Assembly: GCF_001677475.2 (NCBI RefSeq)
Contig: NZ_CP015229.1
Reading direction: 5' to 3' (one strand)
Length of the DNA: 64,000 nt
From: Escherichia coli
GTDB taxonomy: Bacteria > Pseudomonadota > Gammaproteobacteria > Enterobacterales > Enterobacteriaceae
The stretch's first letter is position 1. The number at the start of each line of letters is the position of its first letter. A model generated the notes under the pieces. The model searched no databases. It was not told where the DNA came from and saw nothing but the letters and a program-made list of their open reading frames with translations. Below, in pieces: positions 43,664-57,187 of the stretch. The position numbers were made by a program, and so were the translations under genes.

Positions 43664-43887
43664 TAGTGAGAAGACTTATAGTGCTAATGTGAAACTATAA
43701 ATCATCGGTACAATCCCTGATTTTATTGTTGACATTTCATATATGCCGACTATTTATATGGTATACTTGTCGAATTATCTTAAAGGAAGCTCAAATTTTC
43801 TTATTTTTATTGAGAAAATGAGATGATGCCTTATGTCTGTATTACTACAGGGAGAAGGGAGATGCTTCATTGCAAAGGGAATAATCT

Positions 43888-44502
43888 ATGAACGCAATAA
43901 TTATTGATGACCATCCTCTTGCTATCGCAGCAATTCGTAATTTATTGATCAAAAACGATATTGAAATCTTAGCAGAGTTGACTGAAGGCGGAAGTGCCGT
44001 TCAGCGGGTGGAAACACTTAAGCCTGATATCGTCATCATTGATGTCGATATCCCCGGAGTTAACGGTATCCAGGTGTTAGAAACGCTGAGGAAGCGCCAA
44101 TATAGCGGAATTATTATTATCGTCTCCGCTAAAAATGACCATTTTTACGGGAAACATTGTGCTGATGCTGGCGCTAATGGATTCGTGAGTAAAAAAGAAG
44201 GCATGAACAATATCATTGCGGCTATTGAAGCTGCAAAAAATGGCTACTGCTATTTCCCCTTCTCTCTCAACCGGTTTGTTGGAAGTTTAACGTCCGACCA
44301 GCAAAAACTCGACTCCTTATCGAAACAAGAAATTAGTGTCATGCGGTATATTCTTGATGGCAAGGATAATAATGACATTGCTGAAAAAATGTTCATCAGC
44401 AACAAAACTGTCAGCACGTATAAAAGTCGCCTGATGGAAAAATTAGAATGTAAATCACTGATGGATCTTTACACATTCGCGCAACGTAACAAAATCGGCT
44501 AA
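43888..44502 (+). CDS. evgA: NarL/FixJ-family response regulator
   Basis: 204-aa ORF MNAIIIDDHPLAIAAIRNLLIKNDIEIL... with receiver domain and C-terminal LuxR HTH. Confidence 0.94.
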   Translation: MNAIIIDDHPLAIAAIRNLLIKNDIEILAELTEGGSAVQRVETLKPDIVIIDVDIPGVNGIQVLETLRKRQYSGIIIIVSAKNDHFYGKHCADAGANGFVSKKEGMNNIIAAIEAAKNGYCYFPFSLNRFVGSLTSDQQKLDSLSKQEISVMRYILDGKDNNDIAEKMFISNKTVSTYKSRLMEKLECKSLMDLYTFAQRNKIG

Positions 44503-55774: not shown

Positions 55775-56695
55775 ATGTTTCCACAATGCAAATTTTCCCG
55801 CGAGTTTCTGCATCCTCGCTACTGGCTCACATGGTTTGGGCTTGGTGTACTCTGGCTTTGGGTACAGCTTCCTTATCCTGTTCTCTGCTTTCTCGGCACG
55901 CGTATTGGCACAATGGCGCGACCATTCCTGAAACGTCGTGAATCTATCGCCCGTAAAAACCTGGAACTTTGTTTCCCGCAGCATTCTGCTGAAGAGCGCG
56001 AGAAGATGATTGCCGAAAACTTTCGTTCACTCGGCATGGCGCTGGTAGAAACCGGCATGGCATGGTTCTGGCCCGACAGTCGCGTACGTAAATGGTTTGA
56101 TGTTGAAGGGATGGATAACCTTAAACGCGCACAAATGCAAAATCGCGGCGTAATGGTTGTCGGCGTCCATTTTATGTCGCTGGAACTGGGCGGTCGCGTG
56201 ATGGGACTTTGCCAACCAATGATGGCCACCTATCGTCCCCATAATAATCAGCTGATGGAATGGGTGCAGACCCGTGGTCGCATGCGCTCTAACAAAGCGA
56301 TGATCGGCAGAAATAATCTGCGCGGCATTGTCAGTGCACTGAAGAAAGGTGAAGCGGTATGGTTTGCTCCCGATCAGGATTATGGTCGTAAAGGCAGCTC
56401 CTTCGCGCCGTTCTTTGCGGTGGAAAATGTCGCCACAACCAATGGCACCTATGTCCTCTCTCGTCTCTCTGGCGCAGCCATGTTGACCGTAACGATGGTA
56501 AGAAAAGCGGATTATAGCGGATATCGTTTGTACATCACCCCAGAGATGGAAGGCTACCCGGCAGATGAAAATCAAGCCGCTGCCTATATGAACAAGATTA
56601 TCGAGAAAGAGATCATGCGCGCACCGGAGCAGTACCTCTGGATCCACCGTCGCTTTAAAACGCGCCCGGTGGGAGAATCGTCGTTATACATTTAA
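55775..56695 (+). CDS. lpxP: lipid A palmitoleoyltransferase (cold-induced late acyltransferase)
   Basis: Start placed at MFPQCKFSREFLHPRYWLTWFGLGVLWLWVQLPYPV (306 aa); track ORF has a 22-codon extension; LpxL/LpxM/LpxP-family sequence. Confidence 0.9.
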   Translation: MFPQCKFSREFLHPRYWLTWFGLGVLWLWVQLPYPVLCFLGTRIGTMARPFLKRRESIARKNLELCFPQHSAEEREKMIAENFRSLGMALVETGMAWFWPDSRVRKWFDVEGMDNLKRAQMQNRGVMVVGVHFMSLELGGRVMGLCQPMMATYRPHNNQLMEWVQTRGRMRSNKAMIGRNNLRGIVSALKKGEAVWFAPDQDYGRKGSSFAPFFAVENVATTNGTYVLSRLSGAAMLTVTMVRKADYSGYRLYITPEMEGYPADENQAAAYMNKIIEKEIMRAPEQYLWIHRRFKTRPVGESSLYI

Positions 56696-57050
56696 CAAAC
56701 TGCTCTCACTCTTTCCCTCCTCAAATCAGCCATAATAACCTCATGGTTTTTATGGCTTTTTTCTTAAGGTTTTTTCCTTCGCTGAATATCTAATTATTAC
56801 CGTCAGAAATTAAACTGTCGCCGATATGAGACACCTGTAAGTTACTAAAAGTAAATAAGAAAATGCCTCTTGTCTCGTTTCAGTTTTAGGCGTACATTAG
56901 CGCCGTCTCGAGCAGTTTAGCTCAGAATTCTGGGGTGATGCCCACGGTAAAATACAGGACTTTTAAGGTCGTATTGCCCGGTGTCAACTCACTGTATCAG
57001 GTGTGATGAAGTCATTCAGGCGTAACAGTAATTACGCGGAGAGATGTAAA

Positions 57051-57122
57051 GTGAAATATTTCTTTATGGGCATTTCTTTTATGGTCATCGTTTGGGCCGG
57101 TACTTTTGCCCTGATGATCTAA
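57051..57122 (+). CDS. ypdK: 23-aa small membrane protein
   Basis: GTG-initiated 23-codon ORF (V)KYFFMGISFMVIVWAGTFALMI*, a single hydrophobic helix, preceded by ggagag; too short for the ORF track. Confidence 0.6.
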   Translation: MKYFFMGISFMVIVWAGTFALMI

Positions 57123-57139
57123 AAGCAAACTGTGCAATG

Positions 57140-57172
57140 AAAAACAGGAGCCATCAGGCTCCTGTTTGCATT
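57140..57172. terminator. bidirectional terminator between ypdK and alaC
   Basis: aaacaggagcc-atca-ggctcctgttt perfect 11-bp stem with U-rich flanks. Confidence 0.7.
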
Positions 57173-57187
57173 TCTGACGACGGTTTT

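Follow-up and report, generated by a model that had tools for sequence, protein, structure and literature searches.

The window analyzed here, a stretch of 64,000 nucleotides from Escherichia coli contig NZ_CP015229.1, raises at positions 57051 to 57122 the question of whether a GTG-initiated open reading frame (ORF) of only 23 codons is a gene, where its product begins, and what the product and the RNA around it might do. An earlier note, made from the letters of the window, had read this frame as the small membrane protein gene ypdK, preceded by a ribosome-binding site and followed by a bidirectional terminator, and had argued that a length cut-off hides real genes in the window. The results described below leave us highly confident that 57051-57122 is ypdK, a real gene for a 23-residue single-pass protein with a predicted location in the inner membrane. 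This gene is already known and annotated, which makes the observation right but unremarkable; the sole point that is possibly new is a conserved folded RNA leader 5' of ypdK.

Identity and coding status of the 23-codon frame

On the plus strand, positions 57051-57122 comprise a GTG start, 22 further codons and a TAA stop, and encode (M)KYFFMGISFMVIVWAGTFALMI. The codons read GTG AAA TAT TTC TTT ATG GGC ATT TCT TTT ATG GTC and then ATC GTT TGG GCC GGT ACT TTT GCC CTG ATG ATC TAA, translating into VKYFFMGISFMVIVWAGTFALMI followed by the stop, and both the coordinates and the translation given in the earlier note match the sequence exactly. The proposed identity was borne out as well: the frame was identical to ypdK of K-12 (b4680, NC_000913.3 2496921..2496992) at 72/72 nucleotides and 23/23 amino acids, and the NCBIfam equivalog model NF033437 (YpdK) aligned over 1-23 of 23 with 57.5 bits at a cutoff of 30, the Pantoea and Serratia variants scoring 54.0 and 55.4 bits, respectively. 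A search of complete genomes matched the ORF in 5422/5426, with "membrane protein YpdK" as the annotation under it in each E. coli record among the matches listed; six protein variants carry this name at NCBI/UniRef. Searches with YpdK matched no Pfam family, and no solved structure in the PDB contains it. The GRAVY value was 1.73 for the whole peptide and 1.99 for residues 3-23. Compared with K-12, the setting is the same (lpxP, which is cold-induced, upstream, convergent alaC, then pyrS/ypdA, with the same GTG, Shine-Dalgarno [SD] sequence and terminator); the window differs nowhere inside the gene and at 4/206 positions of the leader, all four outside the helices H1, H2 and H4 described below. 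The window does not stem from K-12 itself, its identity to that genome being 95-98% along the backbone and 77% at the yfc fimbrial operon.

The window sequence alone cannot tell such a frame from chance, because a 3.3-kb segment already contains 48 ORFs of 20 aa or longer. This density would suit a chance open frame in noncoding DNA, for example the 3' flank of alaC or a small RNA, whose peptide is not made, as would the conserved structure of the surrounding RNA and the missing proteomic signal, since in a published comparison table (PMC12350097) neither mass spectrometry nor the PIRT-seq fusion screen detected ypdK. Comparative data, however, set ypdK apart from chance. The convergent placement next to alaC that is seen in the window, in K-12 and in other E. 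coli recurs in 75 of 80 species genomes anchored on alaC, spanning three families, where the ORF is single-copy and always occupies the same syntenic site, and the 76 sequences collected all start with GTG and encode 23-24 aa, representing 41 distinct proteins. Entropy at codon positions 1, 2 and 3 was 0.61, 0.20 and 1.18, so that third positions are about six times more variable than second ones, and pN/pS was 0.28 in the ypdK frame but 1.14 and 2.22 once the frame is shifted. Frame conservation and substitution pattern had both been named beforehand as checks, and both came out on the coding side: the frame is kept across Enterobacteriaceae and also in Erwiniaceae and Serratia, the substitutions are synonymous-biased, and the protein is identical in E. 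coli, Salmonella, Citrobacter and Yokenella. The third check, retapamulin ribosome profiling, points the same way, since ypdK is on the detected list for E. coli BW25113 (PMC12350097, Suppl. Table 1), where the table places it under the column "Ribo-ret only" as a listing rather than a profile. Together with the fixed length, the GTG in 76/76 sequences and a GGAG at SD distance, these results leave the chance reading close to refuted, with next to no probability of being true; ypdK is held at 23-24 codons under purifying selection in Enterobacteriaceae, Erwiniaceae and Serratia. A second gene in reading frame +2, which has 0 stops in 69/69 sequences, was also considered and rejected, as T at second codon positions explains its openness and its pN/pS is 2.2.

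The start codon was likewise resolved by comparison. The ribosome-binding site proposed earlier is present as GGAGAG at 57038..57043 (+), its GGAG being invariant in the Enterobacteriaceae alignment and ending 9 nt 5' of GTG 57051 in the window. A GGAG lies 6-10 nt 5' of the start in 75/76 sequences, most often at 9 nt (47 sequences), then at 7 nt (15), 8 nt (9), 6 nt (3) and 10 nt (1). Between the SD and GTG stands a start-stop pair, ATG-TAA (57044..57049, +), out of the ypdK frame and with its ATG only 2 nt 3' of GGAGAG; in Enterobacteriaceae this ATG hardly varies, and several genera have TAA or TGA after it.

Under mechanical ORF calling the ypdK frame begins at GTG 57003 and has 39 aa, and conservation favors GTG 57051. 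If the true product were a longer protein of 38-39 aa from ATG 57006 or GTG 57003 (MMKSFRRNSNYAERCKVKYFF...), the AGGTG directly 5' of ATG 57006 would fit, as would a frame that both the window and E. coli keep open from 57003, but the AGGTG-ATG spacing is 2 nt only, the added stretch makes the conserved RNA helix H4, and its residues already differ nonconservatively when the window is set beside the E. coli representative. An in-frame stop lies 1-2 codons 5' of GTG in Citrobacter, Salmonella, Enterobacter, Kluyvera and others, and the upstream peptide is unrelated in those genera where the frame is open. Because such stops stand just 5' of GTG in most genera, the extension was ruled out, and we consider it extremely improbable. 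A shorter, 18-residue product from the internal ATG 57066 is compatible with conservation taken by itself, M6 being invariant, but GTG, K2 and Y3 are as invariant as M6, and the SD would be 24 nt from ATG 57066.

The argument about the length cut-off also held, including its expectation that other genes of fewer than 60 codons exist in the window: the 9-codon evgL (b4781) is present at 43862-43891, identical to K-12. A 60-codon ORF cut-off therefore hides at least two annotated genes here, ypdK and evgL. Moreover, ypdK makes a useful positive control, as a 23-codon gene with the correct start was picked from raw sequence without tools.

Transcription unit and terminator

The ypdK gene is an independent transcription unit composed of a conserved putative promoter, a structured leader, the ORF and a hairpin common with alaC. 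The distal promoter, P1, has a -35-like hexamer, TTGTCT (56870..56875, +), 17 nt 5' of a -10-like hexamer, TACATT (56893..56898, +), which is followed by a conserved AGCGCC. A block of TA.ATT plus AGCG was found 5' of ypdK in 70/76 sequences, with TACATT in 49, TAAATT in 9, TAGATT in 5 and TATATT in 2, while at the -35 position most Enterobacteriaceae have TTGTCA, TTGTAA, TTGTCT or TTGTTT and Erwiniaceae have TTTATT. By consensus and conservation, TTGTCT-17 nt-TACATT (56870-56898) is a putative conserved sigma-70-type promoter. Published expression data agree with its position: a K-12 tiling-array transcript at 2494795-2494997 (+) starts 148 nt before the ypdK GTG and is up ~2-fold after UV (PMC3009722 supplement 3), and its start maps to window position ~56903, where K-12 is collinear with the window. 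Inspection by eye for a LexA box near P1 as the cause of the UV induction revealed none. In addition, TGTATC at 56993..56998 (+) is the counterpart, in the alignment, of a TATACT/TATAAT box that other genera conserve strongly. This -10-like element lacks a clear -35 and is degenerate in Escherichia, and it may serve as a further promoter or be a motif of the RNA.

Downstream, ypdK and alaC (alanine transaminase; 57188..58426, minus strand), its convergent neighbor and the synteny anchor used above, have in common a hairpin at 57142..57167 with an 11-bp GC-rich stem (arms 57142-57152 and 57157-57167) and an AUCA loop, the alaC stop codon being at 57188. The fold reaches -24.3 kcal/mol on the plus and -22.8 kcal/mol on the minus strand (z = -3.5 to -3.7; 0/200 shuffles as stable), and a stable hairpin lies 3' of ypdK in 76/76 sequences, with a median minimum free energy of -24 kcal/mol over 65 nt. 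The tails after the stem, UUUGCAUUUC (+) and UUUUUCAUU (-), lie partly within the stem. A simple terminator consensus scan did not call the hairpin at 57142-57167, because both U-tracts are interrupted; what it flagged instead was a 5-bp stem at 57082-57099, within the ORF, a hit taken as chance and disregarded. For the plus strand, termination is backed by a Term-seq 3' end classed as "primary" for ypdK at K-12 position 2497040 (+) (PMC7815308 supplement 1), equivalent to window position 57170, 3 nt past the stem. The passage of that study on this site gives no minus-strand 3' end at the hairpin. Of the bidirectional terminator described in the earlier note, then, the ypdK direction stands on a mapped 3' end and the alaC direction on sequence.

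From these ends, the ypdK RNA would measure ~268-270 nt, made up of a 148-nt leader, 72 nt of ORF and 48 nt after the stop. The leader as a stand-alone small RNA was considered and set aside, as the Term-seq passage on this site shows no 3' end between the lpxP and ypdK terminators.

The conserved leader

The 5' leader of the ypdK mRNA, from transcript start to start codon, occupies 56903..57050 (+) and is ~146-148 nt long. Single-sequence folds of it are not unusually stable (z = -2.3, -1.4 and -0.4), and the case for structure therefore rests on covariation, which supports three helices, H1, H2 and H4, as candidates for conserved folding.

Helix H2 pairs its 5' arm, GGGGTGATGC (56932..56941, +; SD-like GAGGTGATGC in relatives), with its 3' arm, GTGTCAACTC (56981..56990, +). 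Both arms were covered by the same tests: across 37 genera-level sequences, H2 was 94.9% paired, with a covariation of 0.455 versus 0.284 (0/500), a shuffle control that, for this and the other leader helices, can overstate covariation among related sequences; slid controls reached at most 0.152. On the model-fitted alignment, H2 was 95.4% paired, and RNAalifold predicts it independently. Helix H1, with one bulge (56906..56926, +; 56906-56913 / 56920-56926), showed changes on both sides in 7/7 pairs, its covariation being 0.209 versus 0.127 in shuffles (0/500), and the equivalent helix of Erwiniaceae has a different sequence, 90.5% pairing and a covariation of 0.556 versus 0.269. Helix H4 (57020..57037, +), formed by GCGTAA (57020-25), a 6-nt loop and TTACGC (57032-37), abuts the SD. 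It was paired in 84.6-91.6% of cells, with a covariation of 0.40-0.44 versus 0.24 in shuffles (0/500), compensatory types including GCATAC/GTATGC and GCGCA/TGCGC, and its local fold has an energy of -7.1 kcal/mol (z = -3.7). RNAalifold returned no structure on the short SD-proximal alignment (A2), and H4 was found by explicit pair counting. Two further elements were tried and rejected, namely a pairing of an upstream TCAT with the ATGA between the SD and GTG, which showed no covariation and was no better than shuffles, and a conserved upstream ORF from the ATG of GAGGTGATGC, as Enterobacter leaders lack an ATG at that place.

A covariance model built from 37 ypdK leaders gave 55 matches in 758 kb, one per locus, all directly 5' of ypdK and none elsewhere. 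Rfam 15 searched against window positions 56500-57300 gave best scores of 14-24 bits at gathering thresholds of 41-70, located at the ORF or the terminator, and searches with leaders of six other genera yielded nothing at the leader. The most likely use of the helices is to tune ypdK translation, with H4 abutting the SD; H2 would hold the SD-like GAGGUGAUGC paired to CAGCUCUC, a pyrimidine-rich segment that might base-pair with the true SD if left free. More tentatively, the leader (56903-57050) might constitute a structured RNA element, conserved and not described before, that could switch ypdK translation or enable the ~270-nt RNA to work as a dual-function RNA, a proposal that we regard as possible and still rather doubtful.

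Possible roles of YpdK and its RNA

The distribution of conserved residues offers a starting point for the protein. K2, Y3, M6, G7 and S9 and, further on, W15, G17, T18, F19 and M22 are invariant, and in the helix core one hydrophobic residue readily replaces another. We infer that YpdK inserts with its N terminus (fMet-Lys2) in the cytoplasm and its C terminus outside, in which case the invariant residues would cluster at both membrane interfaces and could pack specifically against a helix of a larger membrane protein. The combination of invariant interface residues and a variable core thus suggests, at about even chances, that YpdK adjusts how active or how stable such a protein is, by analogy with characterized small membrane proteins. 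E. coli has several small inner-membrane regulators of this kind, including AcrZ-AcrB, MgrB-PhoQ, MgtS-MgtA, CydX-CydAB, KdpF-KdpABC and PmrR-LpxT. YpdK resembles them in having one hydrophobic helix of fewer than 50 aa, in being missed by length cut-offs, and in conserved residues suggestive of helix-helix packing, but ypdK is in no operon with a membrane complex, and at 23 aa YpdK is shorter than all those named. The sensor kinase PyrS (YpdA), encoded nearby, was considered as the partner and is weakened as a candidate, as a Salmonella locus with an identical YpdK has no pyrS match within ~4 kb on either side of alaC; a dozen other loci also lack a pyrS match in the flank, and all retain YpdK.

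A very short hydrophobic single-helix peptide also recalls type I toxins such as IbsA-E, TisB, DinQ, ShoB and ZorO, and YpdK might be a membrane-damaging peptide of this type whose translation is held off by the structured leader. A structured 5' untranslated region of ~146 nt is unusually long for a 23-codon ORF, one of its helices abuts the SD, and long structured leaders of this type, extending near the ribosome-binding site, are carried by the tisB, dinQ, shoB and zorO mRNAs; the ~2-fold rise of the transcript after UV would fit as well, although no LexA box was seen by eye near P1. Type I loci, however, are patchy and often multicopy, whereas ypdK is single-copy, syntenic and broadly conserved across three families, and Rfam detected no antitoxin-like RNA family on either strand. 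No conserved opposite-strand promoter was seen in the leader alignments. Tight residue conservation, too, fits a peptide that makes a specific contact better than one that disrupts membranes generically, and we consider a toxin unlikely, with only a small chance of being correct.

Alternatively, the main function might reside in the ~270-nt RNA, through base-pairing, protein titration or modulation of alaC by convergent transcription, with the peptide as a secondary product. Its size and intrinsic terminator are typical of small RNAs, the leader contains covariation-backed helices and conserved single-stranded blocks, and the tail-to-tail arrangement with alaC is conserved. The peptide, however, is under clear purifying selection and hence not incidental, the ypdK 3' end at 57170 falls short of the alaC coding end at 57188, and the supplements of one RIL-seq-derived study do not list ypdK, so that this reading seems improbable, if somewhat less so than a toxin. 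The dual-function RNAs SgrS/SgrT, AzuCR/AzuC and Spot 42/SpfP offer a parallel, as the ypdK RNA is likewise ~270 nt long, has its own promoter and an intrinsic terminator, and joins a very small ORF to conserved structured noncoding sequence; the ypdK ORF differs in being far more widely conserved than theirs.

A modulator of a larger membrane protein remains the reading that we favor for the peptide. YpdK belongs to a large set of conserved small membrane proteins, and its identity between E. coli and Salmonella, together with forms recognizable as far as Pantoea and Serratia, indicates a specific task. Its conserved promoter and structured leader provide testable handles on when and how YpdK is made, and they may help to identify the conditions in which a phenotype appears.

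Identity, conservation and start of ypdK

The open reading frame (ORF) at 57051-57122 on the plus strand, read directly, comprises GTG, 22 sense codons and TAA and encodes the strongly hydrophobic peptide VKYFFMGISFMVIVWAGTFALMI* (GRAVY 1.73); the coordinates and translation proposed from sequence alone were thus exact. A mechanical ORF call returned 48 ORFs ≥20 codons long in the same 3.3 kb and began this frame at GTG 57003 (39 aa), and one sequence alone cannot show that such a short ORF is real. The 551 bp around the ORF matched 5422 of 5426 complete Escherichia coli genomes, with the annotation "ypdK: membrane protein YpdK" beneath the match in every record among the matches listed; the best identity around ypdK was 98.2-98.4%. 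Its K-12 MG1655 counterpart, b4680 (2496921..2496992), lies between lpxP and the convergent alaC and is identical to the window ORF at 72/72 nt, while the peptide scored 57.5 bits against a cutoff of 30 with the NCBIfam equivalog model NF033437 (YpdK), bearing out the identification in the earlier note as this small membrane protein. Six variants from other genera all carried the name "membrane protein YpdK" at NCBI/UniRef; searches with the YpdK peptide found no Pfam family and no relative among solved structures. In a 2010 paper (PMC3009722), ypdK is one of the 18 small ORFs attributed to Hemm et al. 2008 and is described as a putative single-transmembrane peptide. By every testable feature the ORF belongs to the YpdK family, with in vivo translation taken from the literature and membrane location predicted. 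Because ypdK is already known and widely annotated, its recognition here is correct but ordinary.

Sampling of relatives was anchored on the neighbor AlaC, avoiding the choice of loci already having the ORF. The resulting set of 80 loci, one genome per species, extended from Escherichia as far as Pantoea, Erwinia, Mixta, Serratia, and Lonsdalea; in 75 of them, a YpdK-like ORF lay directly downstream of alaC and convergent with it. In one of the five others, the contig stops 53 nt past alaC. The Erwinia endophytica locus is a natural loss of ypdK: the last nine codons (TGGGTGGGTGTTTTTTATCTGATGCTATAA, encoding WVGVFYLML*) remain ∼60-130 nt downstream of alaC, with unrelated sequence in place of the 5' part. 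Three distant loci, from Symbiopectobacterium, Lonsdalea, and a contig whose record names Pseudomonas, had no ypdK. The AlaC of this last contig (record title, Pseudomonas resinovorans DSM 21078) shares 91% identity with the window protein, a value unusually high for Pseudomonas that could stem from horizontal transfer, contamination, or a wrong label.

With the window included, all 76 sequences (69 distinct nucleotide and 41 distinct protein sequences) start with GTG and are 23 or 24 codons long, and all three stop codons occur. Residues Y3, M6, G7, S9, G17, T18, and F19 are invariant and K2, W15, and M22 nearly so, with free variation among hydrophobic residues at the positions between. Mean entropy at the three codon positions was 0.61, 0.20, and 1.18, and pooled pN/pS was 0.28 in the ypdK frame compared with 1.14 and 2.22 when the frame was shifted; the synonymous-site pattern that the earlier note had named as a check therefore speaks clearly for coding. 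A chance ORF is essentially excluded, being contradicted by the conserved frame and start together with this pN/pS signature. Frame +2 over ypdK is also free of stop codons, which is explained by T at most second codon positions, and its reading as a second gene was rejected.

Upstream of GTG 57051, the frame is open to ATG 57006 or GTG 57003 in both the window and E. coli, which would give a product of 38-39 aa. This form is excluded: an in-frame stop lies 1-2 codons before GTG in Citrobacter, Salmonella, Enterobacter, Kluyvera, Yokenella, and others, and among genera with an open upstream frame the "peptide" encoded there is unrelated from one to another. The extension is therefore unconserved, and the stretch concerned is an RNA helix instead. 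The ribosome-binding site suggested in the earlier note, GGAGAG at 57038-57043, held up across relatives, with GGAG ending 9 nt before GTG in the window and spacings of 6 (n=3), 7 (n=15), 8 (n=9), 9 (n=47), and 10 nt (n=1). An internal start at Met6 is compatible with conservation taken alone; however, such a start would be separated by 24 nt from the Shine-Dalgarno (SD) sequence and would not explain why GTG, K2, and Y3 are invariant. Between the SD and GTG, an ATG-TAA start-stop pair occupies 57044-57049; its ATG is nearly invariant in Enterobacteriaceae, with TAA or TGA next in several genera. A test for pairing between this ATG region and a TCAT further upstream gave no support.

Promoter, terminator and structured leader

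A TA.ATT-AGCG block occurs 120-195 nt before GTG in 70 of the 76 sequences (TACATT in 49, TAAATT in 9, and TAGATT in 5), preceded by an A-rich stretch and, 17 nt ahead, by TTGTCA, TTGTAA, or TTGTCT, or by TTTATT in Erwiniaceae. In the window, this conserved distal promoter (P1) combines a -35-like TTGTCT (56870-75) and a -10-like TACATT (56893-98) on the plus strand with 17-nt spacing, a predicted sigma-70-type promoter about 150 nt upstream of ypdK. Expression data come from K-12 or BW25113, a different strain from that of the window. A tiling array recorded a plus-strand transcript at 2494795-2494997 (older coordinates, with ypdK at 2494943-2495014), beginning 148 nt upstream of the ypdK GTG and rising by 1.06 log2 units after UV (PMC3009722 supplement 3), and Term-seq placed a plus-strand 3' end, "primary" for ypdK, at 2497040 (PMC7815308 supplement 1). 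Since this region is collinear between K-12 and the window, these ends map to ∼56903, the position expected from the promoter, and 57170, giving an RNA of about 268 nt. Moreover, ypdK is listed under "Ribo-ret only", that is, seen with retapamulin-arrested initiating ribosomes, and was missed by mass spectrometry and a transposon-fusion screen in the same method comparison (PMC12350097); the earlier note had pointed to such ribosome profiling, and the listing answers it in favor of translation.

The mapped 3' end lies 3 nt past a hairpin with an 11-bp GC-rich stem (57142-57152/57157-57167, both strands), located between the ypdK stop and the stop of the convergent 412-aa alaC ORF (57188-58426, minus strand). 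It folds at -24.3 kcal/mol on the plus strand and -22.8 on the minus strand (z about -3.5; 0/200 shuffles as stable), and interruptions in both U-tracts kept a simple consensus terminator scan from calling the site. Downstream of ypdK, a stable hairpin is present in 76/76 sequences (median, -24 kcal/mol over 65 nt), its sequence varying from family to family. The earlier note had called this a bidirectional terminator: the ypdK direction is backed by the 3' end, and we infer use in the alaC direction, the Term-seq passage of PMC7815308 giving no minus-strand 3' end at the hairpin.

Covariation supports three helices in the leader, H1, H2, and H4. Against shuffles, which overstate significance because the leader sequences are related, covariation among 37 Enterobacteriaceae leaders was 0.209 versus 0.127 (0/500) for H1 (56906-13/56920-26), where both sides changed at 7/7 pairs, and it was 0.455 versus 0.284 (0/500; slid controls, ≤0.152) for H2 (56932-41/56981-90), a long-range helix predicted by RNAalifold and 94.9% paired. 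An equivalent H1 hairpin of unrelated sequence in 15 Erwiniaceae was 90.5% paired (0.556 versus 0.269). The H2 5' arm reads GAGGTGATGC, a close SD mimic, in most genera. H4 (GCGTAA/TTACGC, 57020-25/57032-37) ends immediately at the SD and was 84.6-91.6% paired; GCATAC/GTATGC is one of its compensatory types. A covariance model of the leader gave 55 matches in 758 kb, one per locus and always directly upstream of ypdK, with none elsewhere; in its own alignment, which is biased towards the fitted structure, 16/21 pairs showed double changes and 87.1% of cells were paired versus 77.1% in shuffles (slid controls, ≤0.088). Single-sequence folds were not unusually stable (z = -2.3, -1.4, and -0.4), and RNAalifold found no structure in A2, a short SD-proximal alignment. 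The window leader differs from that of K-12 at 4 of 206 nt, all outside H1, H2, and H4.

Within Escherichia, the region inside H2 is degenerate, and a 33-nt deletion there (window 56944-56976) in the E. coli species representative spares the three helices and the ORF, which fits dispensability of this variable region in Escherichia. In most non-Escherichia Enterobacteriaceae, a strongly conserved CTCTC-TATACT/TATAAT-CAG box lies directly after the H2 3' arm, 47-54 nt before GTG; it is -10-like without a clear -35, aligns with TGTATC (56993-56998) in the window, where it is degenerate as in E. coli, and may be a second promoter or an RNA motif. Rfam 15 has no family at the leader in the window and six other genera, and neither Rfam nor the searchable literature describes the conserved promoter and structured leader.

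Other features of the window

The expectation that the length cut-off conceals further short genes was also realized: evgL (MLHCKGNNL*, 9 codons, 43862-43891, plus strand), a second sub-60-codon gene, overlaps the evgA start and is identical to K-12, where it is annotated as b4781; it is unannotated in the PGAP record of strain LH10-b-1. In the PMC7815308 supplement, Term-seq places a very strong minus-strand 3' end at K-12 2498307, 12 nt upstream of the alaC ORF (window ∼58437), suggesting that an RNA terminates within the alaC 5' UTR, either through attenuation or as a 5'-UTR-derived RNA. A promoter-like GCGACA-17 nt-AATAAT at 56793-56821 (minus strand) reads leftwards into the terminator and 3' end of lpxP, exactly where the Term-seq table has the old candidate small RNA tpke70 annotated as antisense. 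The window comes from neither K-12 nor any other complete E. coli genome in the collection. Away from ypdK it is 95-97% identical to K-12, falling to only 77% in the yfc fimbrial operon (16949-22769 in particular), and the stretch at about 33-39 kb, with the csc sucrose genes near tRNA-Arg, is missing from K-12.

Possible roles of the peptide and its leader

The leader probably sets translation of ypdK. H4 abuts the SD, and the pyrimidine-rich H2 3' arm with its extension (CAGCUCUC) could pair with either the SD mimic or the true GGAGAGAUG, giving a three-part switch, on which covariation is uninformative because the SD is invariant. A function centered on the RNA, as a dual-function RNA or through an effect on alaC, is possible alongside the peptide; the coding constraint rules it out as a replacement. 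By analogy, a tiny hydrophobic peptide behind a long structured leader would also fit a type I toxin; against this, ypdK is single-copy, syntenic, and spread over three families, and Rfam gave no antitoxin RNA signal on either strand. PyrS was rejected as a required partner: pyrS lies beyond alaC in most genomes, and a Salmonella locus without a pyrS match within ∼4 kb of alaC keeps an identical YpdK. The gene lpxP adjoins ypdK only in Escherichia, Citrobacter, Salmonella, and Enterobacter.

These results show that ypdK is an independent, conserved transcription unit whose peptide is under purifying selection. With Lys2 as the sole charge, the N-terminus would stay cytoplasmic and the 21 following residues would span the inner membrane. 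Invariant residues at both helix ends around a drifting core argue for specific contacts over a generic anchor, and there is perhaps an even chance that YpdK, like characterized small membrane proteins, acts by binding to a larger membrane protein whose activity or stability it modulates.
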